64,000 bases of DNA, taken from positions 39,410-103,409 of the IMG/VR virus record IMGVR_UViG_3300015207_000465; one strand, given 5' to 3'. This stretch comes from a virus. Lineage: Duplodnaviria; Caudoviricetes. Below the pieces are notes generated by a model. It made no database searches. It was given only the letters and a program-made list of their open reading frames with translations, and was not told the origin of the DNA. The translations under genes and the position numbers were made by a program. Shown here piece by piece: positions 901 through 60,502 of the stretch (within the stretch, counting starts at the first letter, position 1; each line of letters opens with the position of its first letter).

Positions 901-973
901 CGCGGGTTGGAGCAGTTGGAAGCTCGCCAGTTTAACTTGCTGGAGGTCGTGGGTTCGAGTCCTACACCCGCCA
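901..973 (+). tRNA. Initiator (fMet)-type tRNA body with AAC anticodon (predicted to read GTT)
   Basis: Full cloverleaf: acceptor CGCGGGT/ACCCGCC (C1:C72 mismatch), D stem GAGC/GCTC (A11:U24), anticodon stem CCAGT/GCTGG with loop TTAACTT (anticodon 934-936 AAC), T arm GTGGG-TTCGAGT-CCTAC, discriminator A; CCA not encoded. Confidence 0.9.
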
Positions 974-1004
974 CAAATAAAAATCACTTTTACAAACTTA
1001 ATCG

Positions 1005-3659: not shown

Positions 3660-4286
3660 GTTAAGAGGCCTAAGTTTAAAAAAAGTTTCAACGAAGAGTT
3701 GAATCGTAAGTTGTCGGATGGTGGAATAAAACATCATCCCGATGGTTTATATCCTGCTGGGGTGGGTGAATTCCATAAAGCAATTAAAATTGCTAAAAGA
3801 AATAATGGTAATGGGTGGATGGTAGAGAAAAAGGGCAGGGGAAGTTATTCCGGGCTACGCCTCTTTATGTCTAAAGATAAGAAGATGGGATTTGCCTTAG
3901 ATGGCGATAATATAGTGTCTGTCTTTAGCTGTAAGCCAAAAGGAAGTAATGCGATGGGTAAAATTATCCCATTTGCAGTAGCCATGGGTGGCAGAAGATT
4001 GGACTGTTTCGCAGGTGGTCTTCAAAATCTTTATGCCAAGTATGGTGCGCGTCCAACAGGAAAAACACATTTCGACGAGCGATATGCGCCTCCCGGGTGG
4101 GATGGAAAGTCTCATCATCCAATTGTAGCGATGAGATTGCCAAACTCCCTTGAAAAATTGATTAAGGCTTACAACCCAAGACAAAAAGTCAGCCTTAACG
4201 GGGTGCGGTATTATTCTTCGTATAATGACATGGAAAATTCAGCGAGAAAGCGTGGTGCAAGGAATAATATTAAACAAAGCTCTTAG
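3660..4286 (+). CDS. Basic hypothetical protein with GNAT-like segment; probable GTT start
   Basis: Frame opens at GA-GTT-AA one base after the upstream TAG; first ATG is codon 54; VSVFS...GG.RLDCF...L..LY..YG resembles GNAT-like folds. Confidence 0.6.
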   Translation, partial: VKRPKFKKSFNEELNRKLSDGGIKHHPDGLYPAGVGEFHKAIKIAKRNNGNGWMVEKKGRGSYSGLRLFMSKDKKMGFALDGDNIVSVFSCKPKGSNAMGKIIPFAVAMGGRRLDCFAGGLQNLYAKYGARPTGKTHFDERYAPPGWDGKSHHPIVAMRLPNSLEKLIKAYNPRQKVSLNGVRYYSSYNDMENSARKRGARNNIKQSS

Positions 4287-5091: not shown

Positions 5092-5292
5092 GTTAGACGC
5101 AGGAAAACAAGAGAACAAATAGAAGCCCAAGCATCGCGCCTCAGTGAAGCTAATTGGCGCAGGCGTAATGTGTGGGAAAGCGGCACCGCATCCCGTAGGG
5201 CAAAAGAGTCACGCGACCGATTGATAGATAAAGCCGAGAAGCGTGCTTTAGTTCAAAACGGATTAAGAATGGCGACCGGGGGGGGCAAATAG
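5092..5292 (+). CDS. Small Arg-rich basic protein (66 aa) with probable GTT start; absent from ORF track
   Basis: A-rich leader then GA-GTT-AG; reads (V)RRRKTREQIEAQASRLSEANWRRR...MATGGGK; the only ATG is near the end. Confidence 0.65.
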   Translation, partial: VRRRKTREQIEAQASRLSEANWRRRNVWESGTASRRAKESRDRLIDKAEKRALVQNGLRMATGGGK

Positions 5293-5311: not shown

Positions 5312-5381
5312 TGCGTGTTAGAGAAGCGGTCATCTCGCCGTCATCAGACGGAAATCGCAAGTTCGACTCTTGCACACGCAG
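5312..5381 (+). ncRNA. tRNA-like RNA with collapsed (4-nt) anticodon loop
   Basis: TGCGTGT/ACACGCA acceptor, GAGA/TCTC D stem, CCGTC-ATCA-GACGG arm, GCAAG-TTCGACT-CTTGC T arm. Confidence 0.75.
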
Positions 5382-5415
5382 CATAGAAAAATAACGGAAT
5401 TTCATTATCACGACA

Positions 5416-6087
5416 ATGCCGAAGAAGCGAATTAGCAACAAGACACCGCGCAAGCCCAAGGCAACACCCTCGTTTGACTACGAGAGTGAGGAATTTCTGT
5501 CGCGCATTGATGCACTTGCTTTTGAGGGCTTTTACAATACGGAAATCGCTGACGAATTGAACATTAGCCGATACGAATTGGAAATGGCGATAAGTCAGTG
5601 CGAAAAATTGCGCAACACGATAGCGTCTGCCCGCGAGCGTGCGCGTGCGCAAGGCGCGGAAATGCCATCACCCGCTATGTTCGCAAAGGTCTGGGCTGAA
5701 TGTAACGGAAAGCGCACCCTACTGATGAAAAAGTTCGGAATTGGCTGGACTAAACTGCAATCGTGGTTGGCGCAAGAGCCGATATTCGTAGATATAATGG
5801 CGGAACGCGACCTTGAATTTCTTGAGCAGATTGATGTCGCCAGCCGCATCCTTGCATTGGGCGGTGTGAAAGGAAAGGACAACTTTGCGGGATGGAGTCG
5901 CTACCCCGACAGTTGGATGATGCGCTATCATCTGAATACACTCGGAAGACGATACGGCTATGGCGAGAATCCTATCCAACAGGAAGCCGAAGACACCGAC
6001 ATTCCGAAGAATATTGAACAAGGAATCGATATTGAAAGCTGGATTAAGCAGGAAGTGGAACAAAAGAAGCGTGATACGGAACAATGA
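5416..6087 (+). CDS. Probable terminase small subunit
   Basis: HTH-like segment (EIADELNISR); ATGA overlap with the large terminase. Confidence 0.65.
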   Translation: MPKKRISNKTPRKPKATPSFDYESEEFLSRIDALAFEGFYNTEIADELNISRYELEMAISQCEKLRNTIASARERARAQGAEMPSPAMFAKVWAECNGKRTLLMKKFGIGWTKLQSWLAQEPIFVDIMAERDLEFLEQIDVASRILALGGVKGKDNFAGWSRYPDSWMMRYHLNTLGRRYGYGENPIQQEAEDTDIPKNIEQGIDIESWIKQEVEQKKRDTEQ

Positions 6088-8336
6088 TAATCAACCATGA
6101 GATATATTACCCCCTTTATACCGACAAGGAGCATTTCATCATCCTTGTTACGGGCGGTCGTGGCTCTGGTAAATCATTCGGAATCGGCGGCTTCATAGAA
6201 CGCCTATCGTTTGAATTGAAGCGCAAAGGCTATTCCAATTCAGACACCGATAAGATAGTCCACAACGTACTTTACACGCGCTACACGATGACGAGTGCCA
6301 GCATTTCCGTTATCCCCGAGTTCTTGGAAAAGATAGACCTTGACGGCACGGGCAGGTATTTCCGCACAACGAAATCGGATATTGTCAACAAGATGACCGG
6401 CAGCCGCATCATGTTCCGCGGCATCAAGACATCATCGGGCAATCAAACCGCCAAGCTGAAATCAATTCATGGCATCACAACCTTTGTATGCGACGAAGCG
6501 GAAGAATGGACTTCTGACCGCGAGTTTGAAACAATCGCCTTTTCCATCCGTCAGCCGGGTATCCAAAATAGGATTATCATCATAATGAACCCGACCGACA
6601 GTAATCATTTCATCTATCAGAAATACATCAAGGATACGCACCGGATTGAGTATTTTGACGGATTCCCCGTGCAGATTTCCACGCATCCGCAAGTGCTTCA
6701 CATCCACACTACATATCTTGACAACAAAGCCAATCTATCGGAAGAGTTCATCAAGTCTGCACAGGAGATGAAAGAGCGCGACCCGGAACGGTACGCCCAC
6801 ATCTTCATGGGCAGATGGGCAGACGTAGCCGAGGGTGCGGTCTTCAAGAAATGGGGCATCGTCAAAGAATTTCCGAAAAACTGCAAACGTGTGGCCCGCG
6901 GTCTTGACTTTGGATATACCAACGATGTCAGCGCGTGCGTGAAATGCGGCATCATCGGAAACGACCTTTACATCGACGAACAATTCTTCAAGTCCGGGAT
7001 GCTTTCTTCCGAGCTGATAAAAGCACTGCGCGAAGATGATTCTTTCGTCTACGCCGACAGTGCCGACCCGCGACTGATTGACGAAATCGCCCTCGGTGGC
7101 GTAATCATCTACCCGGTTGCGAAGCCAGCCGGAAGCATCATCGCCGGCATAGAAAAGATGAAATCGTTTGACAACATCTTCATCACGGAACGCTCGCTGA
7201 ATGTTCAGGACGAGTTCAGAAATTATGTGTGGGCGAAAGACAAAGATGGTAACTACATCAACGTGCCGGAAGACAGATTCAACCACTGCTTTACAGGCGA
7301 TACACTAATCATGACAACAAAGGGACAAATACCCATCTCGGAAATAACCACAAATGACTATGTGCTAACATCAAATGGTTGTAAAAGAGTAGAAAACACA
7401 TTTAATAATGGACTCAAGAAGATATTGCATATTCGGTTGATTTTTGCTAATTTTGTAGTTGAGTTAAAAGGGACACCAGACCATAAAATAAAGACAGTTG
7501 ATGGATGGAAACAACTACAAGAATTGACAAAAGGGGATGTGCTATACTTGTGCAAACCTTTAATGGAAAGGAGTACTCGCTCTATCCCGGAGAAAGATAC
7601 TTCTCGCGAGGATGTAAGCGATTACACCGCGTCGTCTGGGAGTATTATTACGGTGCAATCCCCAAAGGGTGTCACATCCACCACAAAGACGGTGATACCC
7701 ACAATAACGAAATCGGAAACCTCGAAATCGTGGAGTGTAAAAAACACCTATCGCTACATGCTGAAGAGCACAACGACAATCCTGAAATGCTTGCCGAGCT
7801 GCGTGATAGAATGGATTATGCCAGAGGGTATGCAAATAAATGGCATCGTTCAGAAGAAGGCATCGAATGGCATAGAAAACACGGCAAAGAGGTGGCAGAG
7901 AATCTTGAGCCGATTGAATTTACGTGCCAATGGTGTGGAAAGAAGTTTATGTCCAAGCCATGTGGAGCTAACAAATTCTGCTCAAACGGATGTAAAACGA
8001 AGTTCAGATACCATTCCGGTATTGACAACGAAACAAGAATTTGCAAGCAATGCGGCAAAGAGTTTGTCGCAAACAAATACTCACGAACTTACTATTGCTC
8101 CCGGCGATGCTCGGGATTGCATAGCGCAGCCGTGCGTCCTGAAAGGGATAGAGATAGTAGCGGAAAATACCGCTAAAGTATACGACATACAGGTTGCTGA
8201 CATACACGAATATTTTGCAAATGGAATACTCGTGCATAATTGTGTCGATGCCTCTCGCTACTATGTCTTGGGCTGCATCCTTGGCAAAATACTCAAGCCG
8301 AAGAATGTAAAGAAATCTGATTTAGGAATATTCTAA
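6084..8336 (+). CDS. terL: Terminase large subunit (PBSX-type) containing an intein
   Basis: Walker A GGRGSGKS, Walker B FVCDEAEE, GLDFGY nuclease motif; NH|C.DA.RY motif interrupted by the intein. Confidence 0.95.
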   Translation: MIINHEIYYPLYTDKEHFIILVTGGRGSGKSFGIGGFIERLSFELKRKGYSNSDTDKIVHNVLYTRYTMTSASISVIPEFLEKIDLDGTGRYFRTTKSDIVNKMTGSRIMFRGIKTSSGNQTAKLKSIHGITTFVCDEAEEWTSDREFETIAFSIRQPGIQNRIIIIMNPTDSNHFIYQKYIKDTHRIEYFDGFPVQISTHPQVLHIHTTYLDNKANLSEEFIKSAQEMKERDPERYAHIFMGRWADVAEGAVFKKWGIVKEFPKNCKRVARGLDFGYTNDVSACVKCGIIGNDLYIDEQFFKSGMLSSELIKALREDDSFVYADSADPRLIDEIALGGVIIYPVAKPAGSIIAGIEKMKSFDNIFITERSLNVQDEFRNYVWAKDKDGNYINVPEDRFNHCFTGDTLIMTTKGQIPISEITTNDYVLTSNGCKRVENTFNNGLKKILHIRLIFANFVVELKGTPDHKIKTVDGWKQLQELTKGDVLYLCKPLMERSTRSIPEKDTSREDVSDYTASSGSIITVQSPKGVTSTTKTVIPTITKSETSKSWSVKNTYRYMLKSTTTILKCLPSCVIEWIMPEGMQINGIVQKKASNGIENTAKRWQRILSRLNLRANGVERSLCPSHVELTNSAQTDVKRSSDTIPVLTTKQEFASNAAKSLSQTNTHELTIAPGDARDCIAQPCVLKGIEIVAENTAKVYDIQVADIHEYFANGILVHNCVDASRYYVLGCILGKILKPKNVKKSDLGIF
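7287..8240 (+). mobile_element. Intein (318 aa) in TerL nuclease domain
   Basis: Begins CFTGDT, block B GTPDHKI, ends VYDIQV..HEYFANGILVHN followed by Cys+1. Confidence 0.92.
7505..8176 (+). CDS. HNH endonuclease with C-terminal Cys-rich zinc fingers, in an alternative frame inside the intein
   Basis: LHRVVWE...IPKG.HIHHKDGD..NN...NL HNH motif plus two CxxC...CSxxC repeats; 223 aa. Confidence 0.88.
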   Translation: METTTRIDKRGCAILVQTFNGKEYSLYPGERYFSRGCKRLHRVVWEYYYGAIPKGCHIHHKDGDTHNNEIGNLEIVECKKHLSLHAEEHNDNPEMLAELRDRMDYARGYANKWHRSEEGIEWHRKHGKEVAENLEPIEFTCQWCGKKFMSKPCGANKFCSNGCKTKFRYHSGIDNETRICKQCGKEFVANKYSRTYYCSRRCSGLHSAAVRPERDRDSSGKYR

Positions 8337-13101: not shown

Positions 13102-13380
13102 ATGACGATACGACTAAAAGAAGTAATGAAAGAGAAAGGTGTTACAGGGCGCGAATTAGCGACTCGGCTTAATACGACACCTCAGTACATAAGCAACATT
13201 ACAAGTGGGCGACAAAATCTGTCGCTTAACGGAATAGATGAAGTTGCAAAAGCATTGGGTGTTGAACCGTGGGAATTGCTTGTTTCTCGCGAGCAGCTCG
13301 CCAATTACAAATCCGATAGTCTTATGACGCAATGTCCCCATTGCGGAAAGCCAATAACAATCAAAACTACAATAGAATGA
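13102..13380 (+). CDS. XRE/Cro-C1 HTH regulator with C-terminal CPHCG zinc knuckle
   Basis: RLKEVMKEKGVT..ELA.RL...QYIS.I..G..N.S...I..VA.AL.V. Confidence 0.9.
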   Translation: MTIRLKEVMKEKGVTGRELATRLNTTPQYISNITSGRQNLSLNGIDEVAKALGVEPWELLVSREQLANYKSDSLMTQCPHCGKPITIKTTIE

Positions 13381-14099
13381 AACATTTACTTAAACCAGCA
13401 ATCATCCTTGTTTTGGGAATGATTGTCTTATATCTCCAATCATGCGACCGACCTAATCAAGTTGATAATACGCTATTTGGGTTTCGTTTTGGGCAAACAC
13501 AAATGGAAGTTGATAGCGTTGCGTCTAATAGAGGTTTCCGAAAACTTGCATGGGTCAATTCCACCGGTTATGAGGGACGACTTGATACGCTTGGTGTTAG
13601 ATGGATGCAGATAGAAGCAAGGTTTGAAAAAGATTCTCTCTGTTCCATTGCACTACTCGCGCATAAGGATTCGGAAGATGATGGTCGTGTTTTCGAGAGT
13701 AAGATTAACGATGTGCTGGAAAACCATTTTCATGTATTCGGAAAGCGGTTAGAGCAAGAACCGTATGAAGAATATGGAGCATGGATTTTTGGCAATTACG
13801 TTGTTTCGTTTATCCCCAAAGGAGAATATTTTGCAGTTTTGCAAATATGCCCATATTCCGAAGATAATGCTAAAACGGCAAGGCTTGAATACATCGACTA
13901 TAAAATAGACGAGAACTTAAAGAAGCTCGCTAACGCTATGGCTGGTTATATTAAGGCAAGAGAAAGTGGTCAATCTACCATGAGGGAAGTTTATGTGGAT
14001 GATGTACGCTCTGCAAATGGTTTTCTAAATAAACATTACGACCTTATGACCCCCAGACAAAAGGAACTCTTTGACAAACTAAGGAATATTACTTATTGA
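13377..14099 (+). CDS. Lipoprotein (possible superinfection-exclusion or lysogenic-conversion factor)
   Basis: MKHLLKPAIILVLGMIVLYLQS-C lipoprotein signal; translationally coupled to the HTH gene; function is inference. Confidence 0.65.
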   Translation: MKHLLKPAIILVLGMIVLYLQSCDRPNQVDNTLFGFRFGQTQMEVDSVASNRGFRKLAWVNSTGYEGRLDTLGVRWMQIEARFEKDSLCSIALLAHKDSEDDGRVFESKINDVLENHFHVFGKRLEQEPYEEYGAWIFGNYVVSFIPKGEYFAVLQICPYSEDNAKTARLEYIDYKIDENLKKLANAMAGYIKARESGQSTMREVYVDDVRSANGFLNKHYDLMTPRQKELFDKLRNITY

Positions 14100-14120
14100 T
14101 TTATTTGGAATAAGCAAATA

Positions 14121-14156
14121 AGCGCATCAGTCATCACGACTGGTGCGCTTTCTTTG
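14121..14156 (+). terminator. Rho-independent terminator
   Basis: AGCGCATCAGTC-atcac-GACTGGTGCGCT followed by a T-rich tail. Confidence 0.7.
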
Positions 14157-14320
14157 TTGTATCAATGTTGTATCAATTTCCAGATATGCTGATAAAACAA
14201 ATTCGGCAACGCATTGGTATTGCGCGGAATAGAATTTAGCATTGTAGTGCCACCAGTACCACTAAAAAGGCGACACGCCTCTCGGCGCATCGCCATAGGA
14301 AAGGGTGTGTGAAAAAGGGG

Positions 14321-15604
14321 TCATTGTTGTTTGATTTCAGCAGTCACGCCGTTAGTGTCGGTCACGTCTGCCGGGTTAATCGTTTTTGCGGTATCGGGAT
14401 TTTCAGCAGCCACCGACAATCCTAAATCGCAGAAGCCCTTGCAAGCTCCGCGATAGCCGTTGAAAAATTCAGTGGCGGTCATGCGTCGCTTGTTCGGCAT
14501 CTGCAATTCAAGTACGGAAAGAAGATTGTCGCCACAGGCGATGTATAGCTTTCGGTCTTGCCAGAATAGCTCGCCGGGCGCATGGTGGCCACGCGGTATG
14601 TCGGTCTTTTCCGTTCTGAAAATCTTGACGCTCATGGCCTGCTTTCCAAGCATGGCCAGTGAAGTCCAAGCTGATGGGATTGGAGTAAGTGCGCGTATGA
14701 AGTCATAGACGTAATCGGCGGGCTTGAGCCACGGAATGATGCAGTCCTTGCGATGTAGCTTTGGCGCGTAGCATGGCTGGATGAAGTCACAGATAAGCTC
14801 CGACTGAGGAATGGGGTTGCATGAATGGGCTATGCGCTGGATTGCATCGTCTATCATTTCCGCGCCGGCAATGCGTAGCTTGATGTGAACGTCTTCCGCG
14901 TTATCATCTTCATCAATGCCGATGGCAAGATTGTTTATGATGCCGCCGGTGTCGATTTTGTCTTCAAGCATGAACGTTGTCACGCCGGTCATGGCATTAC
15001 CATCCTTGATTGCGGATGCGATGGTGGAAGCACCGCGATACATGGGCAGCATAGATGAGTGGAGGTTGATTGTACCCCACGACGGAATGGTGTATAGCGC
15101 ACGTGGCAGTATTCTGAACTCCACTACTACGCCGAGCGTCGCATGAAGATTGTGGATGTGCCGCAGAAATCTATTAGAGTCAAGTTTCCGTGGTTGAAAA
15201 ACAAGGATGCCCATAGATTCGGCATAAACCTTGACCGCAGATGGCCGCAGTTTCTTGCCACGCCCGCACGGTTTATCTTCCATAGTTACGACTGCCGCGA
15301 CATCATATCCGTTTTCAACAAGCATTTTTAGCGTGGGAAGCGCAAACTGCCCATTGCCGAAGAATATGATGCGTATTCCCTTGCGTGATACAGGCTTGTC
15401 AAAATCACGTTCCGGGTATGAAACAATATCAGTTTCGTCAACAATTACATAACCGCCGGATTTCTTCAATCGCAGAAAGTAAGAGCCATCATCTTTTGGG
15501 TATAAGATTTTGGCTTCCGTAAAAATACCGCCCCCATCATTACCGTGCAGGAGTCTGCTTGGAATTTGGACTGTCTGCCCGACGCGATAAAGAGGTGTTT
15601 TCAT
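14321..15604 (-). CDS. fmt: Methionyl-tRNA formyltransferase homolog, divergent, with ~75-aa N-terminal extension
   Basis: RIIFFG...FALPTL, VVT..DKP.GRG, INLHSSMLP.YRGA..I, TGVTTF....IDTG, YAPKL, IRAL.P.P.AW and ELQ...KRRM...F..G cover both Fmt domains. Confidence 0.92.
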   Translation of the reverse strand: MKTPLYRVGQTVQIPSRLLHGNDGGGIFTEAKILYPKDDGSYFLRLKKSGGYVIVDETDIVSYPERDFDKPVSRKGIRIIFFGNGQFALPTLKMLVENGYDVAAVVTMEDKPCGRGKKLRPSAVKVYAESMGILVFQPRKLDSNRFLRHIHNLHATLGVVVEFRILPRALYTIPSWGTINLHSSMLPMYRGASTIASAIKDGNAMTGVTTFMLEDKIDTGGIINNLAIGIDEDDNAEDVHIKLRIAGAEMIDDAIQRIAHSCNPIPQSELICDFIQPCYAPKLHRKDCIIPWLKPADYVYDFIRALTPIPSAWTSLAMLGKQAMSVKIFRTEKTDIPRGHHAPGELFWQDRKLYIACGDNLLSVLELQMPNKRRMTATEFFNGYRGACKGFCDLGLSVAAENPDTAKTINPADVTDTNGVTAEIKQQ

Positions 15605-15870
15605 CGCGGCGTGGCGGTTTTGATGTCGATACGTGCGCCGCACTGCGGGCAGATGATTGTTGCCGGGTTGGGTGCGAGGTAGTCTGTGAATAGTGATGCA
15701 ACTGGTACGTCAAGAGCTTCCGCTATCTTTTCAAGGGTAGAGATGTTGGGGCTATTCTTCTCGTTCACGATACTGCCAAGAGTCTGGGGAGCTATATTCA
15801 TTTTTTCGGCAAGACTTTTCAGTGTCATACCTTTGGCGGCAACGATTGCTTTAATTCTGAATTTTGACAT
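15601..15870 (-). CDS. XRE HTH regulator with CPQCG knuckle
   Basis: HTH_3 pattern; stop overlaps the fmt ATG. Confidence 0.9.
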   Translation of the reverse strand: MSKFRIKAIVAAKGMTLKSLAEKMNIAPQTLGSIVNEKNSPNISTLEKIAEALDVPVASLFTDYLAPNPATIICPQCGARIDIKTATPR

Positions 15871-20601: not shown

Positions 20602-21348
20602 ATGAAAAATAAAATCTTTGCAAAACTAAAACAGGAGTATTCCTCTCTTGGGTTAGGCGACGAATATCTGATGGCAAAAGCCGATTCCCTTGCAGCGACC
20701 GGTCTTGTGACTGACGATAACGTCGATGCTGTCGTGGCATGTCAGCGTAAAGAGCTTGAGGGTCTTCAAAAGTCCAACGACAAACGTGTTACCGACGCTC
20801 TTGAAAAGGAACGTAAAAAGCACGAAGAAGAAACTCGCAAAAAGGAGCAGGAAGCCGAGGAAGCGCGTCGCAAAGCGGAAGAAGAGGCAAAGGGCAAAGT
20901 GAAGCCCGAAGTTACCGACCCCGCCGGCGACCCGCGATACGACGAACTGAAAAAGCAGTTTGACGAAATCGTCGCCGCCGGAAAGAAGCGCGATGCTGAG
21001 TCGGCTGCAACCATCAAGGCTCTTACCGATAGGAACACGGAACTTGGCAAGGCGGTCAAAGACCTCACTGACAAGAATACCGCAGCGGAAGCAGCAGCTG
21101 CCAAAGCAGCACGCAATGCGATGATAGTGGCGAAAGCCAAAGAGTTGGGCGTTCCGCAGTGGCGTATCGACGAGGGCTTCATTATCGCGGATGACGCGAC
21201 CGATGAGGTTGTAACCGAAACGCTGACCAAGGTTGCGAACAACATCAACACCAATATTCTTCCGGGAAATCGTGGCATGTTCCCCATGGCCGGCAATGAG
21301 CCTACCAAGGATGAGCTTGCTTCGATGGCTGCAAACCTCGTTAAGTAA
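20602..21348 (+). CDS. Probable capsid scaffolding protein
   Basis: Charged coiled-coil protein heading the capsid operon. Confidence 0.7.
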   Translation: MKNKIFAKLKQEYSSLGLGDEYLMAKADSLAATGLVTDDNVDAVVACQRKELEGLQKSNDKRVTDALEKERKKHEEETRKKEQEAEEARRKAEEEAKGKVKPEVTDPAGDPRYDELKKQFDEIVAAGKKRDAESAATIKALTDRNTELGKAVKDLTDKNTAAEAAAAKAARNAMIVAKAKELGVPQWRIDEGFIIADDATDEVVTETLTKVANNINTNILPGNRGMFPMAGNEPTKDELASMAANLVK

Positions 21349-21810: not shown

Positions 21811-22899
21811 GTTAATCAGTCATTTTATTTCGATTACGCAAAGCGTTTCTTCCCCGGCCTTGTGCTGGCTATCGTAGAACGCCTCAACGAGAAGCGTGCC
21901 AATTCCGCTCTCACCTACCTTTACAAAGAAAAACTTCGCCCGCAGTTTTCGCTTGATGGCCGCTGGGCTTCCATCCTTGCGGAATACACCCGCGTAGCCG
22001 CCGACGTTGTGGCACTTGACTCCGAGCTTCCGCTCAAGAGCCGTGACACACTGGAGGTTGCTTCCGGCACAATTCCCAAAATCGGTATGAAGCTCTACCT
22101 GACCGAAAAGCAGATGAAAGACGTTGACTCGATGATTGCGCAGGGTGTTCCCCTCCAGACCATCATCGACAACATCTTCGCTGATACCCCCCGTTGCATC
22201 GAGGGCATCTGGGAGCGCATCGAAGACATCTTCCTTTCGGAGCTTTCGTCGGGTGTCGGCGTTTCCGAGCGCAACAACGGCACAGGTGTGCGCATCAACA
22301 TGAATTTCTATGACGACAACCAGTTCGCTGTTTCCAAACTTTGGAGCAACACCGACGCAACTCCGCTTGACGACATCCAGAAACTTGTTGACAAGTCCAT
22401 TACCGACGCAAACACCATCATCGACGCATACGCTGACGACACCGCCCTCGGTCTTCTCTACAAGAACAAGCAGGTGCGTTCACAGTTCGCGTTCAATCAG
22501 GGCATCGCCATGACCGGTTCGACCACCGTGCCGGTGCTTGACTTTGCGAAGCTCCAGCAGATTTTCCTCACCAAGTGGAACATCAATCTGCACCGCGTCG
22601 CCCGCCGTGTCAAGACCGAGCTTAACGGCGAAAAGAAAAACCATACCCCGTGGAAGACCGGAACAATTTCCTTTGTCTGCGATGAAGAGCTTGGCTCACT
22701 CGTATGGACTAACGTTGCCGAGGCTTCGCGCCCCGTTGAAGGCGTTGTCTATCAGACTGCCGACCAGTACATCCTCGCAAAGAAATATTCCAAGACCGAC
22801 CCCCTCCGCGAGTTTACCGCTTCCGAGGCTATGGTTGTGCCTGTGTTGAACAACGTTGACCGCATCTACACGCTCGACACTCAGACAGTTCAGGAATGA
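21811..22899 (+). CDS. Major capsid protein (362 aa), probable GTT start
   Basis: AADVVA.DS..P...R, G.IPKIG.K..L.E motifs; frame reads GTT AAT CAG TCA TTT TAT from 9 nt after the upstream stop; first ATG is codon 93. Confidence 0.8.
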   Translation, partial: VNQSFYFDYAKRFFPGLVLAIVERLNEKRANSALTYLYKEKLRPQFSLDGRWASILAEYTRVAADVVALDSELPLKSRDTLEVASGTIPKIGMKLYLTEKQMKDVDSMIAQGVPLQTIIDNIFADTPRCIEGIWERIEDIFLSELSSGVGVSERNNGTGVRINMNFYDDNQFAVSKLWSNTDATPLDDIQKLVDKSITDANTIIDAYADDTALGLLYKNKQVRSQFAFNQGIAMTGSTTVPVLDFAKLQQIFLTKWNINLHRVARRVKTELNGEKKNHTPWKTGTISFVCDEELGSLVWTNVAEASRPVEGVVYQTADQYILAKKYSKTDPLREFTASEAMVVPVLNNVDRIYTLDTQTVQE

Positions 22900-24620: not shown

Positions 24621-25169
24621 GTTACAAACAACGCACCCAAAGTTTGCGCGGTCGGCATCAAAAAGCTGTACTATGCCGACACCAGCAAGGTAACGGCAGA
24701 CCTTACCGGCGCATTGCTCGCCGCACTGCTTGCCGACGAAGCCACCAAGGAAGTCAAGAACATCCATCAGGACACGTGGACTATCGAAGAGAGCGAAGCC
24801 TCGCAGGACGGCTATCGCAATCAGCTCACCGGTTCTATCTACCGCATGGGAACGAAGACCATGGGCGACGTAACTTTCAACTGGACTATCGGTCAGTACG
24901 ACTATCCTACCAAGGCTGAGTTCCTCGGTGGTGTCGCTACCGACAAGTCGTGGAAGCGTCCCCGCGGTGTCGTCGAAATCCACAAAGTCCTCATCGCACT
25001 CACCGAAGACAATCAGTATTGCGTTCTGCCCTACGCCAACGTAGCCGGTCGTGAAGCCAACACCGACGGCGCAGTAGGTCTGGGTATCGTCGGAACGGCA
25101 ATGGAGCCTACCGACCCCAACATCGCATCCGAATACTGGTTCGACTCTTCCGAGGTAGTGACCGCGTAA
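24621..25169 (+). CDS. Major tail (tube) protein (182 aa), probable GTT start
   Basis: In-frame TAA at 24597, then GA-GTT-AC reading (V)TNNAPKVCAVGIKKLYYAD; first ATG is codon 76; position before the chaperones. Confidence 0.75.
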   Translation, partial: VTNNAPKVCAVGIKKLYYADTSKVTADLTGALLAALLADEATKEVKNIHQDTWTIEESEASQDGYRNQLTGSIYRMGTKTMGDVTFNWTIGQYDYPTKAEFLGGVATDKSWKRPRGVVEIHKVLIALTEDNQYCVLPYANVAGREANTDGAVGLGIVGTAMEPTDPNIASEYWFDSSEVVTA

Positions 25170-25256: not shown

Positions 25257-25864
25257 ATGGAAGAAGAAAACAAAGAAAAGAACGACGGTGCGAGAATGGT
25301 CGCCAGTGCGATTATAGGGCTTGACTACCGCATCGCCATCGTTAACGACAAGTCATACGTCATCCAGCCGCCCACAATCGCCAAGTTAGCCGGCGCGACG
25401 TATTGGTTATGCGAAAGCGGAACGGGAAGCACGTTAAGGGATATTCTGATGTCGCTGTCAAAAAGCGAAAATCTTGCAAAGGCATTATCATGGTTCATCC
25501 AAGGCAACGATGAACTTGCGGAAGAATTATCCCAAGGCAAGATGCTTGAAATCGTGGATGGTCTTGAGGCCGCTTTCTCCATGATTGAAGCTGAAAATTT
25601 TATGCGGCTATCGGCTTTACGGAAGAGCGCAAGTCGGCTGATAGCAAAACCGAAATGATTGGCAACGAGTGTATGCTCGGCCAAATCGCATCATTTATGG
25701 AAGCTCTCTGCCTGTCCTATGACGAGGTAGTCCATAAAATTCCATACCGAAATCTGCTAATCATGCAGAAAGACAAGATGCACCCATGCACCGGTGTCAA
25801 AATCAGTCATTCCAGCGGTAAAGACATGGCCGCCCGCCGTCGCCAGAATAAGCGTGACGGTTAA
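25257..25864 (+). CDS. Probable tail assembly chaperone pair (25257-25658, 25655-25864)
   Basis: Two short ORFs following the tail tube gene. Confidence 0.55.
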
Positions 25865-37607: not shown

Positions 37608-40351
37608 ATGAAAATAATCGCTAACATCTACTATGTAGGCCAAATCGTATTTTCAGCCGCCCTCGCAATATGGGCGTTATACATGGCACTGCGCGGCCTC
37701 TTTACTGGCGGCTCGCTATTCGTAACGTTCTGCTTCGCAGTAATGACATGCACAACCTATTGCCTCATGTACGTGCCAAGTGTACGCGAATACAAGGAGC
37801 ATAAGGCAAGACACAACAAAAAGGCACAGACCGAGCAAAAATGATTGAACCGCAGACCGGCATACAACAGGACGTTGACCGCGTGGAAATCAGCGACACC
37901 CTTATTGACTTGATTGTCGATAAGATGGTCGATGAAATGAATGACCGGATAGCCAAGATTGACCCACGCGATGACCCCTCGGCTGAATATGGCGAATACT
38001 GGACAAGCGGAAGCTATGATAGCGATGACTATTTAGAACTGGACGAGCCAAATGACGAATACTGCATCTCGTATAAGTTTGAGCTATCGTGGGAATACCG
38101 CGAATGGACTGAATACTGGACTGACCCAGTATGTTACCCATCGTTTGACGATATGCGGAACGAAACCGGCTACGTCTATGACATAGAAATCGACACCCCG
38201 GATGGCGATGCAGTCAAACAAAGTATCTGCGACGCTATCGCAAAGAAAGTAAACGAAAAAATCGGATAAACATGAGCCTATACAACCTTATCAATGGCGT
38301 TAATCCTGCCACGTTTTTCATCTTGCCCATGCTCGGCAAGCACCCGGATGAATATCCCAGATTCAGGGATTGCTTCGTAGGGGAAGAAGATACCATCGTC
38401 GTACTTACCCGCGTAGGCGGCGCAAACCGCAACACAGGCTATGGCGAAGACAAGATAATGGGACACCCCAATTTCATCAAGACTTACGATGATGATTTTG
38501 ATAACACCTACGGCTATTACGTCTATTCAGTGCCTGACCGCTGGCGCGAAGACTACAACAAAATCATCAATGGCAAAACGCTATTCGTATCGGAAGAATA
38601 CTTTAACGAGATGCTGCGCGTATGGCCTAACCTTGAAGACAAACTGCGGAACATGTTTCATCGCCCCAAAACCGAAGAGAAATGACGAAGCGTAAATCAT
38701 CTGCGGAAGCTGCTGCGGATTATGCCGCAAAGGACTACTATATCGCACAGCGTACCGACCTACTGAAATCCGCGTTTAACGCCGGCGCATCGTGGCTATT
38801 CAATAATCAATGGCACGACGTGTACGAAGAAGCACCGCCCAAATCCGGGCAATATCTCGTCATCTACCTTATGGATAAGGGCGAGAATGAACCGCCGGAA
38901 AAGCGATACGTTCAAGTGTTCGACATCCTTGTGTATTTCAAGGATAATGAAGACGAGGGCTTATTGCCGTGGGGATTAGAAGATGAATTTGAATACCTCG
39001 CAAACGCCATAACACATTGGGCGTTCATCCCCAAAACGCCACCTATAACAACGCTGGAGGATGGGCTTTATTTAGGCGAAGCAAAGCCTTACAATCCCGA
39101 AATGCACCGGCGTGATTACAATAACCTACCAGAAGAATATCAGAAATGAAACCTATAAAATTTACATGGACGCAGACCCGTGACCCGCATTTGGCATCAT
39201 TGGTCAAGACAGACCCGGAATTTGCGGAACGAGTCAGAAAGTCAATAACCAACCTTGAGAATTGGCTTGAAAAATGTGCCGACAAAGGCAACTGGGATGA
39301 AATTGAAATGTCAATCCCTTGCAATCAGATTGTCAACAATGACATCTTGATAAATGATGTCGGGAATGAAGACCGCATGTTTCTTTTCGTGGTACTGAAT
39401 AGCAAACCAATAGAAGAAATTATGAACAGCGTAGTCACGGAACATTATACGCATCTTGTCTATCTTGACTTGATGGACTCAATCAAAGGATAGATGGCAC
39501 GACTGGATGAAGAAAGGCAAAAAGCGTTAGAGCCAGAACGCATACGCCACGCAATCAAGAAAATCACCGCCCTCGGCTATGAAATAACCGCGCAGGATAA
39601 CACATCTATAAAGTTTATCCACAACGGCAAGACCGTGACATTTTACCCTTATAGCGGATGGGCTACCGGCGCAAGCATTAAAGATGGCAGGGGTTTGAAA
39701 CACTTACTATCACAACTGAAACTAATAACCAATAAACTATAAAACTATGGCAAATAAAGAAGACAAAGCCACGGGCGTTGAAATGCTCGGAAAGGCAGTT
39801 GAGGGCGAGGTCGATGTGACCGCCCTTGAAGAAGAAATCGCTAAACTCAAAAGCGAGAAAGCGGAAATGGAAAATCGCATCCAGCGCCTTACCAATGACC
39901 GCGACCAATACAGCAAATGGTGGGGCGAGGCAACCACGGAAAAGGAGCAACTCCGCGCCGTGGTAAAAGCCATCGCAGCCTACGCCAAGCTGGTGTGACA
40001 TGAGGATACGCCCGGATGTATTGCCGAGGGTGTATAGCCGGGCGTATCTATGCCTAAATCGTTTAATCAAAGACAAATATGGAAGCAAAAGCAATAATTC
40101 AAAAAGAGGAAGAGATGATGACCGATATTCGTGCCTTCATCCCCAAAATCGTAGGCATACGCCTTGAGGCGCAAAAGGCAACGGCGTGGCTGAAAAAGCA
40201 AAACGCGGAACTCGCTACCGCGTCAGAAGAAATGTTAGAGGCCATTGAAGCCTTATATCGCGCGGAAGCAGCCATGGGTAATGCTCATCAATACTTGTTA
40301 GTATCGCAGGCCACCCTCAAGAGCGGATGTTTCACGGAAAGCGCAACCTGA
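37608..40351 (+). CDS. Operon of small hypothetical early genes (37608-37844, 37841-38269, 38272-38685, 38682-39149, 39146-39493, 39494-39742, 39747-39998, 40079-40351)
   Basis: Tightly packed ATG ORFs. Confidence 0.6.
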
Positions 40352-42449: not shown

Positions 42450-42504
42450 TTAAGCGAGGTCAGTTTAAGCCGGCCTCGCTTTCGTTTTATGACCTTTGCG
42501 TATT

Positions 42505-45500
42505 ATGCTGACCATCTACGATAACAAAGGCGTAAAACGCTTTGAAACGCCAATTAACAAAGGCTCTAAACGTGTCTTCAAGTTAATGGCAGACGACTAT
42601 GTGACGCTAATTTTCAGCGTCGCAAAACCTATCTATTTCAAGTTAGGCGATTATTGCGACATACCCGGATTTGGTAGGTTTGAACTTGTATCGCCTTATA
42701 AGCCGGTCTACAATCGTGCAACCAATGGCTATGACTACGAGTTAAGGCTGGATGCGCAACACATGAAATGGCGCAATAAAATCATGCGCTATCTGCCCAA
42801 GACCGGAGGTGCTGAATGTGCGTGGTCACTGACTGCGACCGCCGACGTGCATTTGGCACAGGTGCTTGAGAATATTGAAGCTCTGGTAACTGAAACGCTT
42901 ATGAATGGCGATAAGGTTATCAATCAGCGATATTTATACAATGGCGCGACGAAATGGGCCACGTTGATAGATGGCAGCGTGGAGGCATCGGCAAAGACAA
43001 TCAGCTACGACAGCACAAACATAATCGACGCACTTACGGCAATCGCGGAAGCATTTGAATGTGAGTGGTGGCTGAATGGCAATATCATCTGCCTCGGAAA
43101 ATGCGAAGAAACCAACGAATACGTTGACCTTGAAATCGGCATAAACGTAGCCGAGATGTCAAGAAGTGACTCGTCGGAAGACTATGTGACGCGCATCTTG
43201 GCGTTTGGCAGTGAGCGCAACATATCGCCCAGATACCGCAAAGACCTCCTTTTTGATGTCAAGGAAATAGCCAATGGCGGCAATCGTGTCAGCGATACAA
43301 GCCGACCGCTGGAGGCTGAATGGTTTGCATCTTCTATGGTGGAAACATCGTCAAGCGACAATACCCTCAAGCGCGTCAAGGGCATCACGATTGAAATCAT
43401 CGACTCCACCGGTGCGGTCACGACCACGCTGAATGGCGTTATTTACAACCCGGACTATAAGAGCGGAATATCGGATAAGAACTGGCTTCAACTGCCGAAT
43501 GGCGCAGTCATGCAAGCCGGTCAGCGTTTCCGCATCAAGAATATCATTGAAAGCAAGGTCAAATCAAGCTATTTTTCCAGCCGTTACTCCGCTTATGATG
43601 ATATTTCCAATGTGGTGCGCAACGGCATCGTGACAAGCCGATTGATGCTCCCTGTGTCGCACGGAACGCCCTATATCGACTATAAGCCGGGGCTGTCCAT
43701 GGAAGAAGGCGTGGAAGATGTCGTTGTATTTGAAGATGTCTATCCACGTGCAGTTTGCGCCATCACAAAGATTGATACCGTGCAGCGCAAAGAAACCATC
43801 CAGAACGATGACGGAACGACAACCGAAACGACCTTTACCGCTTACAAAATCAAGGATGATTTCTTCACGTCTGCGCATCCCTTTGAAAATGATTACATCG
43901 TACCCAATGAAACGCTCAAGATAACATTCCAAGACGGAAAGCGATATAAAGAGGGCGATGTCATCCCGGATGGTAAGAAAGTGGGCGACCTTATCAATCC
44001 TGAAAGCGGAAAGCTGAACGGATGGACTTTTGAGGTGCAATTCACCAAAGACAAGGATGGCTCGGCTATCTGGGAAATAGTCAGGGATAACGAGGTCTTC
44101 ATACCGAATGAAATCCTATGCCCTGAAATCGGCGACCAGTTTGTGCTGACCGGCTTTGATATATCGGTTGTCGATGACCTTTATGTGGAAGAAGCGGAAA
44201 AGGAGCTGCTTGACAAGGCGACCAAATACCTTGAAAAGCTAAACACCGACCCATCTACATACGATTGCACAATGATGCCCGACGTAATGAAAGCCGGGCT
44301 GACCCTCGGACTCGGAAAGCGCGTCAATCTAATCAACGATGCGTTCATTGAAACCACCACCGACGCAAACGGAAGAAAGTGGGGTCGCAAGAGCCGTGTC
44401 ATTGGCTATGAAATTCCCCTTGATATTCCGTATGACAATCCCGTCTACACCATTGGTGAAAAGGCGGCATATTCCCGCTTTGGTGAAATTGAAGACAAAA
44501 TCGACGCACTGAAATTCTCCATGACCGCAGGCAAGAATTACCTTGGCGGTTACTATTCCGATGGGTCTTCATCATCCAATGGCGGCATCTACGTCATCAA
44601 GCAGACCGACATCACGCCGGCAAGCGAAATCAACGTATTCTCGGCACTGCGCAGCTACCTTGAATTTACATCCAAAAAGGCAAAGGAAATCATCAATTAC
44701 CTTTGGACTTTTATGCAGGGCATCCGCGTAGGCAACTATGTGATGAATAACGATGGCGCGAAGATTGACCCCAATGGCGATGCGGAATTTAACGATGTCG
44801 TAATCCGCAAGGGTGCATCGGTAGGTACTGACCTTAATGTTGGCGGTGATGCTACTGTTGGGAACGAGCTAACTGTCAAAAAAGGCGTGACCATCGGCGA
44901 CTACTATCAGCCGGGTGCGTATGGTGGTCGCATCTGGATTGATGGCCTTGGAAAAGTACACATTGAAACCGACTATCTTGATGCAAGGGAGAAGATTGAA
45001 GCCAAAGAGGTGGAAATTCAGGAAGAAACCCACGTCGGTGGCTGTCAGATTATATCCCCGGCGGCTATGCGCTGCTCAAGGGTAATTCCAATATACAATG
45101 ATGCCAACAGCGTTGTTGCTTATAAATGTTTCTTCACTGCGGAAGATGAAACCGGCACTCAGATTTTCAACCAGTTTGAGGTCGGTGACTTGGCTAAATG
45201 CGAAACATTCAACCTGACCAAGCAGCCAAACGGAAAGATGGGCAACCATTATTATTGGCGCAAGGTTACGGAGGTCGGCTACGTCAACAAGGGCGATGCT
45301 GATTACGATGACGATTTCGGTATGGAGGGTTATATTGTTGTTTCCAACTTGCCGAAAGAAAAAGATACGGGCAGCGATGCTCCTTTGGCCGGCGACCGCA
45401 TTATTACCGTCGGCAACGATGACCCGGCAAAGGCAGACCGCTCCAATCTTATCATCCTTGCAAGCTACGGAAGCGGAAGCCCCTACATCTATCAGTATAA

Positions 45501-48500
45501 GGGCATCAACACCTTTGCGCTGACGAAAGACAATCTCAAGGTGGCAATATCACCCAACGGCAACCTTTTCACCGGTAAATTCGTCATTGAGAACGGAACG
45601 GAAGAAGTTGATGTCGTTGACTACATTGAAAACAACATCTATCTTGAGGCATATCAGCTTGTACTTTCCAACGAGATGGCCGGTGTGCCTTGCGATGTCA
45701 ACGGCAATATTATCGGCGACCTGCCAAGTTCAAAGATTACAGTCTTTAAGGGCAAGACCGTTGAAACCGACTGGACTCTTTCATCGGAAGCCATCGGCTG
45801 TAAGGCATCCATCGTTTCTGACCATGTATATCTATCGGAATTGACCGACAAGAACGCCACGGTCACGATTACAGCCACAAAGAAAGACTGCCCCACGCTG
45901 ACAAAGGTAATGACCATCTGCAAGCTCAAAGAGGGCGAAGCGGGCGTTTCCGGCGACCACGCAGTGCAGTTTGAGATTGAGCCTGACAAGCCCATGGTGC
46001 TTGCCGACATGGATGGCGTGTGCGACCCCGCCAACCTTGGGTGTAAGGTCTACATGGTTATCGGCAATCAAAACCGCGTTGAGGTTCCACTTGCCAACAC
46101 TGCGGCCATCACGACCTACAAGGCAGGCGATAAATTGCTTTTCTTCAACGGCAGATTGTTTGTCAGCCGACCCGTTGAAGTTGATGTTCCCACCGACCTT
46201 GTTTTGCGTTACGTCATCGTCAACCAAGACTATGTTACCGATGAAACAACCGGCAAGGTGTCGCCAGTTATAACGTCGGAAACAGAGCATATCTATACCG
46301 GCAAGGCTATTGAGATGTCGGCAAGGATGAAACACATCATCTTCAAACTATATCGTGGAAACACACTTATCGACATGCAGACCGTTGTTGTGACTACCGA
46401 CGCATCTGCGATGAAAGTGGTGTATGATACGCGCTTTGAGGTCAATGAAAAGGAAATCTTTGCCCATGCAAGCCGAATATCGCAGACGGAAAAGGATATT
46501 GCCGAGTTGCGCATTACGGCAGATGGCATTTCCGCGAACATCGGCAAACAGATGGGCATCATTCAGGACATCATCAATGGCGCAGGGCGAAATCTTCTCT
46601 TGAAGACCAACTCGGCAGGTGTATGGAAATACGCATCCGACAGTATGTCTAACGCATCGACCATAGGTCTTCTGAACAATCCCAACAACGCCACCAATTT
46701 CTATGTAGCACCACGCACCGACTCCACATACGAGATATTCTACTATCCCATTCGCCCGGAACTGATAAAACAGGGCGAAAAGTACACGTTCACGGTCAAC
46801 ATCAAGAATAAGACCAATTCGGTGTCTGACGTTCTTGAGTTTTACGCAGTGATAGCAAACACCAACTCGTCTGTACAACTGACGAAAACGGCATACTTTG
46901 ACGTGGTTGTAGGAAATGGCGAGTACCGATTGACCGTTGAACTTGAAGCCAGCGCAACGGGAACAAAGACCGGTACTCAAGTGCTGATTTTGGGTATTGT
47001 GCCGGCAAGAATAAACACATGGACTGCCATCTCGCTTTGGCATCCCAAACTTGAAAAGGGGTCAACAGCCACCGCATATTCCGAAGCACCGGAAGACCGC
47101 GAGGATTACCTTTATGCCGAGCTGAACACCAAAATCGACGTTACGGCAGAGGGGTTGCGGTCAGAGGTTACAAAGAAGATTGGTGAGTCGGAAGATAGGA
47201 TTAACGCTGAACATAAATCCCTTATCCAGCAATCAGCCGATGAAATTCTTGCACAGGTGGAAGCATGGGATGACGAACTTGGCGCAAGTATATCGGAAAT
47301 ACGTCAGACCGCAAACAGCATCAGCCTTAAAGTGCAAGAGCTTGCCGGCTACGAAAACCTTGTGACTGGAAATAGAACTGGAACTGGTTGGCTTTTACAA
47401 GACTATACCACTGGTGAATTTGTAGACACCACCCCAGACGAGAATGGTCAATACATAATAGCCGTTGGTGATACGTCGGAAAGAAGATTGCGTACATCTC
47501 TTTTCAATCTTCAAGCAAATACCAAATACACCCTTTCGTTTGTGCGTGGTAGTATAAATGCTAACACGAGTGGCTTTGCCATTGAAATAAAATATGGGGA
47601 TGCAGGAACTATTTTGCATAGCAAAACATTCCTTGCTAATGCAATGGTGAATGAAATCCGCGAAACGCTGACTTTCACAACTGGAGATAGTGTGGTAGAG
47701 AACGCTTTCATCGACTTTATCCATCGTGGAAATCGCCCCAACGTGCAAATGTCAACCATGATGCGCATATCGCAAGTAATTCTTGAGATAGGCGAAATCG
47801 CACACCCTTATGTGGAAGACGCGACAGGTTTGTTGGCGACAGGTATTGATATTATCAATAGGAAGATTGTATTCACATCCGACAATATCATATTCCGAAA
47901 CAACAAGGGCGAGCAGTCTATGTTCATAGACAAGGATGGTCGTATCCTTGCAAAATTTATCAATGTAGAAGAGTTGCACGTAGACCATCTTATCGCCGGT
48001 GATGAAGATGGCGAATGTGTGGAAATAGACCCCGTTCAGAAAGCTATCTACATCTATGACATTAACCATGAGCTTTGCACGACCATAAACGGTGAAGCGC
48101 ATCCCGGTGGTATCAATGAAATTTACAAGGAAGTTACAGGTGGCTCAATAGACCTCTATACAGCTATAAATGGCAACCAAATATCAAATGGCGGTTTTAG
48201 CTTTTACGGAGATAATTCAGGCATAGAAAAATCGCAGAATTATAAGGTATATTCCAAATCATGGCCGGCAGATGCCGCACCTATTGTTGAATTTAGTCAA
48301 GGCCGTATCTATTGCCACGCATACGCCCCCGGTTTTTACAAGCAAAGGAAAGATAATTTATCATACGGTGCTGATACAATCGTCAGCATGGAAGATATGA
48401 GGCCATATTTCGCATCGGTCTATGTATCGGTTTGTCTGGAGGTTGCGGATGATGAGAATTTCACCCAAAATGTAAAAACTTTCGGCATACATAATACGGG

Positions 48501-49958: not shown

Positions 49959-50210
49959 GTTAAGAAAATCACAAAATGGATTAAGGAAAGCAATCGCTAC
50001 AAGCATCTCGCAGGGGGCATCGCAATAGGCATGGTCAGCAATACGCCTTATTGCGCTGCCCTTTGCGGCTGTGGCGTTGCATCCGCACTTGAGCTAAAAG
50101 ATAAGCTCTGGGGCGGTGAATGGGATTGGATAGACTGGTCGCTGACCGTCGCCGGTGTCGCCATCGGCTATTCCATCCGAGTAGGCATCACATTACTGAT
50201 TAAATCCTGA
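49959..50210 (+). CDS. Small membrane protein (83 aa), probable GTT start; absent from ORF track
   Basis: GA-GTT-AA then KKITKWIKESNRYKHLAGG...LELKDKLWGGEWDWIDW; fills the gap between the flanking genes; first ATG is codon 25. Confidence 0.7.
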   Translation, partial: VKKITKWIKESNRYKHLAGGIAIGMVSNTPYCAALCGCGVASALELKDKLWGGEWDWIDWSLTVAGVAIGYSIRVGITLLIKS

Positions 50211-60073: not shown

Positions 60074-60107
60074 ACGTTTGTAAGTGTGTGATAATCAGTA
60101 AGGGTTG

Positions 60108-60502
60108 TGGAGCTGGAGGGGTTTGAACCCTCGTCCAAACGTGGAACTAATGAGCTTTCTACATGCTTATTCTCAAATTGGTTTTCGTGTCGCGGCAGGT
60201 TTGAGACCACCAACCGCGGCCTTATCCTCTAAGTGTTCGGCGACTCTCGAGGCTTTTGTCGCTATATTCCCGATTTACCTGCACCGCCTAATCGATTAGT
60301 CTCGGGAAGAGGACAATCGGGCGATGTCTCGTCTCTGCAACTGTTGCGGAGATAAAGCTAATCTACTGTGCTTCGATTAGGCAGCGAGAGCGTAGTTGTT
60401 TTCGCCATTTGAATTGTTGATGTCTCTGATTATAGAGTGTGGGCATCATCACTCTGCATGCTTACTCACCACCTCTACACGCTGTCAAAGCCAGTCAGCC
60501 CC
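60108..60502 (-). ncRNA. ssrA: tmRNA
   Basis: 5' GGGGCTGACTGGCTTTGACAGC, 3' T arm and CAGCTCCA with G3:U70; tag ORF GENNYALAA*. Confidence 0.96.

Follow-up and report, generated by a model that had tools for sequence, protein, structure and literature searches.

This study concerns a 64-kb window (64,000 nucleotides) that forms the right-hand part of a 103-kb IMG/VR provirus record (IMGVR_UViG_3300015207_000465, positions 39,410 to 103,409), a prophage whose host is a mouse-gut member of the Muribaculaceae, and in particular a 427-aa protein (P0001) that is encoded on the minus strand at positions 14321..15604 and resembles bacterial methionyl-tRNA formyltransferase (Fmt). P0001 is probably the formylase of a valine-charged phage initiator tRNA and, as such, the third part of an initiation pathway owned by the phage, alongside an initiator-derived tRNA whose anticodon is AAC and a set of genes that open at GTT. 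In the pathway we propose, the phage would produce the initiator-type tRNA with anticodon AAC, the host valyl-tRNA synthetase (ValRS) would load it with valine, the phage Fmt would formylate the resulting Val-tRNA(AAC), a substrate that ordinary Fmt would handle poorly, and the fVal-tRNA would open translation at the GUU codons of the genes for the capsid, the tail tube, and three other proteins. We infer the amino acid with which the tRNA is charged, the preference of the enzyme for valine or for the AAC tRNA, and the role of an N-terminal barrel that distinguishes P0001 from other Fmt.

To our knowledge, bacterial initiation relies on a single initiator tRNA (CAU) and a single Fmt that is tuned to methionine, and initiation with other amino acids has so far been a laboratory construct, in which formylation is a known bottleneck. 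In engineered E. coli, Scopelliti et al. (bioRxiv 10.64898/2025.12.21.695813) reported that an i-tRNA-AAC starts translation only at GUU, with Val accounting for 59% and fVal for 30%, and that two steps are bottlenecks, charging by ValRS and FMT-catalyzed formylation; extra FMT gave a further 3-fold gain, and the Vmax of FMT, as cited in the same study, is about 60-fold lower on the Val-charged initiator. A literature search identified neither a natural system of GUU starts or phage initiators nor a phage-encoded Fmt like P0001; the pathway that P0001 apparently serves thus appears to have no published natural counterpart.

The phage formyltransferase and its clade

P0001 contains both domains of bacterial Fmt, namely a Rossmann-like catalytic domain (Formyl_trans_N, residues 78-251, 3.2e-29; 14852..15373, minus strand) and a C-terminal Fmt beta-barrel domain (Formyl_trans_C, residues 282-385, 2.8e-19; 14450..14761, minus strand), and its residues 76-385 align to residues 3-304 of E. 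coli Fmt (1fmt/2fmt), where the alignment ends. Among NCBIfam models, the fmt equivalog TIGR00460 is far ahead of ArnA, PurN, and the sugar formyltransferases, with a score of 217.8 bits that is barely above the cut-off of 201.5. The AlphaFold (AF2) model of P0001 (pLDDT 88.5), in which the last 30 residues are disordered, superposes on the E. coli Fmt complex 2FMT, and its top fold matches in the Protein Data Bank are the Fmt structures 4iqf, 5uai, and 2fmt (TMt 0.84-0.90). A first-pass annotation, made from the DNA letters and their open reading frames (ORFs), had described the catalytic N-x-H and D motifs as intact, and the alignment with E. coli Fmt bears this out: N180, H182, and D218 correspond to E. 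coli N108, H110, and D146 (in INLH and IDTG) and are invariant across the clade to which P0001 belongs. The SLLP motif of Fmt is kept as well, as is the tRNA-binding insert in loop 1, which reads KPCGRGKK in P0001 (KPCGRGKKLRPSAVK aligned to E. coli RPAGRGKKLMPSPVK); R115 in this loop, the conserved Arg with which Fmt reads the acceptor helix, is present in 48/48 family members, and the GRG of the loop is absent from some deep members of the clade. Comparisons with close relatives yielded a nonsynonymous to synonymous substitution ratio (dN/dS) of 0.13-0.20, indicating purifying selection on P0001. Judged from its sequence, P0001 is a two-domain Fmt homologue that descended from bacterial Fmt, and because both the loop-1 insert and the catalytic triad are kept, it should be an active aminoacyl-tRNA N-formyltransferase that is expected to bind the acceptor stem of an initiator.

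We give next to no credence to the alternative that P0001 acts on something other than tRNA, such as a sugar nucleotide or a modified base in DNA, as ArnA-like enzymes and sugar N-formyltransferases would. The N-terminal domains of ArnA and of 10-formyl-tetrahydrofolate dehydrogenase (FDH) do share superfamily, formyltransferase fold, and catalytic triad with P0001, and the "GAS" that P0001 has instead of "GAA" is presumably reminiscent of FDH. These domains are, however, much weaker matches and lack the tRNA-binding loop 1, whereas P0001 retains Fmt-specific features, including the Arg-bearing loop-1 insert and the C-terminal domain of Fmt; the solved structures closest to P0001 are by far those of Fmt, by sequence (E 1e-45 versus 1e-21 for ArnA) as well as by fold, and no sugar or base-modification genes were found flanking fmt.

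What separates P0001 from other Fmt became apparent from a column-by-column comparison of 48 family members with 73 canonical Bacteroidota Fmt. N84 (E. coli T11) is Asn in 48/48 family members and Thr in 73/73 canonical enzymes; the next residue, G85 (E. coli P12), is Gly in 47/48 and Pro in 72/73, respectively; E/D162 (E. coli A89) is Glu or Asp in 48/48 as opposed to Ala in 73/73; S193 (E. coli A121) is Ser in 48/48 as opposed to Ala in 73/73; T194 (E. coli P122) is Thr in 43/48 as opposed to Pro in 73/73; and position 171 is Phe or Tyr in the family and Trp in 73/73 canonical enzymes. Where Fmt typically shows the motifs G-T-P-(D/E)-F-A, V-V-A-(F/Y), and R-G-A-A-P, P0001 thus reads GNGQFA, VVEF, and RGAST. 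The altered motifs that the first-pass annotation had listed stand for GNGQFA, for GASTI (GAAPI in canonical Fmt), and for the Ala to Glu replacement at the start of "EFR"; the remainder of "EFR" is ordinary, as canonical Bacteroidota Fmt reads AFR. The signature replacements are fixed in the clade and occur in none of about 190 canonical Fmt. In the model, strands 78-83 and 157-161 carry them at their C-terminal ends and helix 194-200 at its start; they thereby surround the catalytic strand 178-182, where the fold puts the active site.

A second distinguishing feature is the N-terminal extension (residues 1-75; 15380..15604, minus strand), which had been noted as an extra domain of approximately 75 aa and which proved to be family-wide. 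The extension is modelled as a Tudor/SH3-like barrel with four strands (residues 11-15, 28-37, 41-46, and 52-56), and its fold matches to Tudor/SH3 are weak (E about 0.01, TMt 0.76-0.78). It is specific to the clade, being present in every member, including those of a distant lineage (group B, see below), and in no canonical Fmt that was compared; across 262 proteins, the extension and the Asn-Gly, Glu/Asp, and altered GAAP signature always occur together. A search of 5.8 billion proteins recovered about 47 family clusters (395-434 aa, 40-88% identical over the full length of P0001), followed by ordinary Bacteroidota Fmt (315-330 aa, about 43% identical over the core), and an exhaustive profile search of 1.84 billion representatives identified only about 22 that are N-extended. 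The 27 family rows are set apart by a single split (SH-aLRT 97) in a maximum-likelihood tree and are not nested among Bacteroidota Fmt. By these comparisons, P0001 belongs to a small separate Fmt clade. While it thus resembles bacterial Fmt (TIGR00460; E. coli 1FMT/2FMT) in its two domains, fold, Asn/His/Asp residues, loop-1 Arg, and SLLP motif, P0001 differs in the added N-terminal barrel, the disordered tail, and the replacements T11N, P12G, A89E/D, A121S, and P122T, and its clade is found in prophages alongside an initiator tRNA with a non-CAU anticodon.

The AAC initiator tRNA and the genes that open at GTT

The tRNA gene is located at 901..974 on the plus strand and was identified by ARAGORN, as Val(AAC), and by Rfam. 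It combines an initiator body (C1xC72 mismatch, G2:C71, C3:G70, A11:U24, and A73) with a non-CAU anticodon; its anticodon loop reads UUAACUU (hence U37), and only one of the three anticodon-stem G:C pairs is left. When three Muribaculaceae genomes were compared, the host tRNA closest to it was the initiator tRNA-fMet, in which the 1:72 pair is likewise a mismatch (C1xC72 or C1xU72), and the differences between phage tRNA and host initiator are confined to the anticodon arm. Among AAC tRNAs of this kind, covariation is seen in the T-stem, and the 1:72 mismatch is kept, as position 72 is either C or U. The pattern of the phage tRNA was found in the genomes of Paramuribaculum intestinale DSM 100749, Lepagella muris NM04_E33, and Muribaculaceae Isolate-036, in Barnesiella, Bacteroides, and Porphyromonadaceae metagenome-assembled genomes, and in 14 metagenome contigs. 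Charging of the phage tRNA with valine by the host ValRS is suggested by the identity elements A35, C36, and A73 and by the behavior of the engineered E. coli i-tRNA-AAC. The engineered system has in common with the phage the AAC initiator tRNA and the GUU starts, and formylation of the Val-tRNA is limiting in it. It is, however, man-made and uses unaltered host FMT at a higher dose together with over-expressed ValRS, whereas the phage system is natural, comes with an altered Fmt, and does not supply ValRS (neither a deformylase nor a class-I synthetase was found in the prophage); the phage tRNA also differs from its engineered counterpart in that it has U37 and is without two of the three anticodon-stem G:C pairs.

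The features of this tRNA also bear on whether the enzyme could have been re-specialized for something other than the amino acid, with the barrel and the altered loops reading the phage tRNA, or tethering the enzyme to ValRS, initiation factor 2 (IF2), or the ribosome, and with a permissive pocket. While no other feature of the clade is as distinctive or as well co-inherited as the barrel, and while deep members with differently built tRNAs differ in loop 1 (e.g., P0125, which is without GRG and is paired with the tRNA body of lineage L168), we consider this explanation unlikely. In its acceptor stem and D-stem, the phage tRNA has the same determinants as the host initiator, canonical Fmt is not known to contact the anticodon arm (2FMT), and the signature changes are found around the catalytic strand and not on the tRNA-binding loop.

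A formylase for a Val-charged initiator would act on behalf of five plus-strand genes in the window, which have no usable ATG, GTG, or TTG and begin with a GTT that an in-frame stop precedes by a few codons; these start calls are based on in-frame stops in relatives, conservation, and covariation. For the major capsid protein gene (21811..22899; phrog_29 3.6e-31, Phage_cap_E), TGA is the codon right before GTT in G001 and G003, which also are missing the downstream GTG of the window; the GTT start is shared by L129 and L168, where the capsid genes were called at 329 aa and comprise 361 codons when read from GTT. In the tail-tube-like gene (24621..25169; phrog_14600 4.6e-64), position 4 of the phrog_14600 profile corresponds to residue 8, so that the profile starts four residues past the GTT; TAA is found two codons upstream of the start in G005, and G001 and G003 lack the sole nearby TTG. 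In the case of a 208-aa gene (3660..4286), orthologues that are only 41% identical retain "TGA TAG CGA GTT AAA". An 83-aa gene (49959..50210; phrog_38535 4.6e-32) covers positions 2-77 of the 82 positions in phrog_38535 only when read from GTT, and the context of this codon is "TAA CGA GTT" in G000 and "TAA AGA GTT" in G001. An Arg-rich gene of 66 codons upstream of the small terminase gene (5092..5292; AGA GTT AGA) is less certain; genes like it come after "TGA GTT AGA" in G004, G005, and L168, and it probably starts at GTT.

The context NGA-GTT is common to all GTT-start genes, and the start GTT is unchanged within the lineage, whereas internal conserved Val residues have the same codon in only 11-70% of cases. 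Since GUU starts are found on the most abundant virion proteins and since formylation by FMT is a bottleneck, the phage would have a clear reason to carry a better formylase. Automatic annotation masks the system, as the enzyme is labelled "methionyl-tRNA formyltransferase" and as gene callers shorten the GTT-start genes. Two additional lines of analysis were set aside. Codon-usage score counts of candidate starts, considered as a control for GTT, were dropped, as antisense ORFs also scored positive. Pairing between mRNA base -2 and position 38 of the tRNA would account for groups A and B (G with U38) and for half of the L168 starts, where G38 is found with -2 U in two starts and with -2 G in two; an A at -1 with U37 is the sole constant mRNA/tRNA context.

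Two other tRNA-type elements were observed. A tRNA-like element at 5312..5382, upstream of the small terminase gene, overlaps or abuts the region of the GTT gene at 5092 and is also found in L129 (c[20942..21015]) and G014 (39488..39558); ARAGORN assigns elements of this type an abnormal anticodon loop ("tc", "gca", or "ca"). As its T-stem covaries between the window and L129 (GCAAG/CGTTC versus GTGGG/CACCC), the element may be a real structured RNA. In addition, L053 (IMGVR_UViG_3300027773_000183) encodes, on the minus strand at 6257, an initiator-type tRNA with anticodon UAU and all three anticodon-stem G:C pairs, which may read AUA and hence provide one more private start codon.

Co-inheritance of enzyme, tRNA, and start codons

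Among related IMG/VR records long enough to contain both genes, 6/6 carry the AAC tRNA, with Fmt identities of 57-92%, and two related records without the tRNA stop short of its expected place; co-occurrence of the tRNA was checked outside L127, L128, and L166, and that of Fmt outside long metagenome contigs with other AAC tRNAs. In group B (G007/G011), the Fmt is 36% identical to P0001 and has the same barrel, with the motifs FFGNG, VVVEFR, and RGSTP, and is accompanied by an initiator-like tRNA with anticodon UAC (loop UUUACUU); the capsid gene of this group (67% identical) and one other gene start at "TGA GTA". Anticodon and start codon thus covary, AAC being found with GTT in the lineage of the window and UAC with GTA in group B, and therefore change together while the type of Fmt stays constant. 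A third lineage, L168, encodes its Fmt (P0125) 7 kb from a differently built AAC tRNA (U1xC72), and its capsid gene and three other genes start at GTT. In L166, where the capsid start at the same place is ATG, the Fmt relative P0218 has decayed, having lost the catalytic Asn (IALH) as well as the GRG of loop 1.

This distribution has to be weighed against the possibility that P0001 is a generic auxiliary Fmt, which would increase formylation of host Met-tRNA-fMet during infection, in the manner of phage deformylases and other translation helpers, and would have no link to Val or AAC. P0001 does pass the TIGR00460 equivalog cut-off, NCBI names a close relative methionyl-tRNA formyltransferase, the acceptor-stem determinants are the same in the phage tRNA and the host initiator, so that an ordinary Fmt could bind both, and extra FMT alone already helps in E. 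coli. We nevertheless find a generic role quite improbable, as every member of the clade has replacements at residues that are invariant in 73/73 Bacteroidota and in about 163 other canonical Fmt, and as the clade, where this could be checked, occurs only with variant initiator tRNAs and GTN starts, while the enzyme is decayed where the capsid start is ATG. The host, moreover, already has an fmt: host genomes carry a canonical copy (264-274 bits with TIGR00460) besides the prophage copy (196-206 bits), and the prophage Fmt of Lepagella muris, at 195.6 bits, is under the cut-off of 201.5.

Several observations weigh against P0001 as a dedicated formylase of the Val-charged initiator. G017, which is 94% complete, has an AAC initiator-like tRNA and no detected Fmt, and no A-GTT start candidates were found in it under the criteria used. 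Three partial contigs (G013, G015, and G019) likewise have an AAC initiator-like tRNA, with U1xU72, and no Fmt within the contigs; they show one clear "TGA GTT" gene, of 253 aa, and the 253-aa high-scoring gene in G013 (34723, minus strand) reads "AGGAGGTAGTGA GTT AAT", with the Shine-Dalgarno-like sequence AGGAGG. In the fragmented draft genome of P. intestinale DSM 100749, the tRNA is present and a phage-type fmt was not found, which reflects either the fragmented assembly or a prophage copy without Fmt; in this genome (G024), the AAC tRNA is located on a 12.5-kb contig (C351, 4600..4673), and the canonical fmt is the sole fmt found. As AAC initiators occur without Fmt in other phages, the enzyme is a helper in one phage group and therefore not universally needed. 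All co-occurrences, furthermore, are within one broad syntenic phage group, and shared descent therefore explains part of the association. Finally, an acidic Glu or Asp in place of Ala89 has no obvious fit to a hydrophobic pocket for valine. The tie between Fmt and AAC tRNA that the first-pass annotation had proposed thus is supported by the 6/6 co-occurrence, the UAC/GTA pair of group B, L168, and the decayed Fmt of L166 with its ATG capsid start, but does not extend to strict dependence, given the AAC tRNAs without Fmt in other phages, including G017.

P0001 as formylase of the Val-charged initiator remains the explanation that we favor, and its valine specificity would be carried by the altered pocket. 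The most far-reaching version of this explanation is that P0001 is a true valyl-tRNA formyltransferase, with a pocket (Asn-Gly loop, Glu/Asp89, and Ser-Thr) rebuilt to prefer Val and a barrel that links the enzyme with either the phage tRNA or the initiation machinery, and that it forms, with the AAC or UAC tRNA and the GUU or GUA starts, a complete natural three-part orthogonal pathway that gates virion proteins; we regard this version as a serious but tentative proposal, somewhat short of an even chance. In crAss-like and Lak phages, suppressor tRNAs and stop-codon recoding make late structural genes readable only with a decoding part supplied by the phage. Such recoding acts at termination and elongation and is not known to need a tRNA-modifying enzyme, whereas the phage Fmt system would act at initiation and with a dedicated formyltransferase. 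The pathway suggests how a temperate phage could block translation of its capsid and tail genes until it has produced its own tRNA and enzyme. If our interpretation is true, P0001 would be the first sign of evolution retuning Fmt to another amino acid, as well as a ready-made part for orthogonal GUU/Val initiation in synthetic biology, and lysogens that are available in culture collections (Lepagella muris NM04_E33 and Muribaculaceae Isolate-036) make the idea directly testable.

The XRE-fmt unit and other features of the prophage

The ATG of fmt at 15604 overlaps, as ATGA, the TGA of a gene for an 89-aa XRE-type helix-turn-helix (HTH) protein with a C-terminal CxxC (15601..15870, minus strand; HTH_3 6.7e-14). 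An intrinsic-terminator-like hairpin (14269..14294, minus strand), identified by a consensus scan only, has 11 pairs, of which 8 are G-C, and a T-run; as this hairpin stands directly after the fmt stop, XRE and fmt look like a two-gene unit. The first-pass annotation had described fmt as translationally coupled to an XRE regulator; the 4-nt overlap is indeed kept in the close lineage (L002-L006 and L127-L129), whereas group B and L168 lack the coupling. The first-pass annotation had also raised a possible two-key control, through expression of the enzyme separately from the tRNA, and the XRE-fmt unit does end in a terminator-like hairpin of its own. A further gene pair (13102..14099), convergent to fmt and with a separate terminator-like hairpin (14120..14150), consists of another XRE gene with a CxxC tail (13102..13380) and, overlapping it, a gene for a 255-aa lipoprotein-like protein (13332..14099).

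On its right side, the prophage extends to a transfer-messenger RNA (tmRNA) gene with the tag GENNYALAA (60107..60502), likely the attachment site, beyond which the window continues into G+C-rich host DNA with a host gene. Directly after the tail-tube-like gene, two overlapping ORFs (25257..25658 and 25595..25864), the second of which is coding-like and has no start for 20 codons, present what reads as the usual layout of frameshift-made tail assembly chaperones. The large terminase gene (6084..8336) carries an intein, with Intein_splicing/Hint matches at residues about 402-719; the large terminase (TerL) of L127 and L128 is 434 aa and without an intein, and the version in L129 is of the Hom_end_hint type. 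A reverse transcriptase gene at 56670..58256 (RVT_1, 6.5e-12), which directly follows two giant ORFs (42496..49290, 2264 aa, and 50216..56104, 1962 aa), probably belongs to a diversity-generating retroelement.

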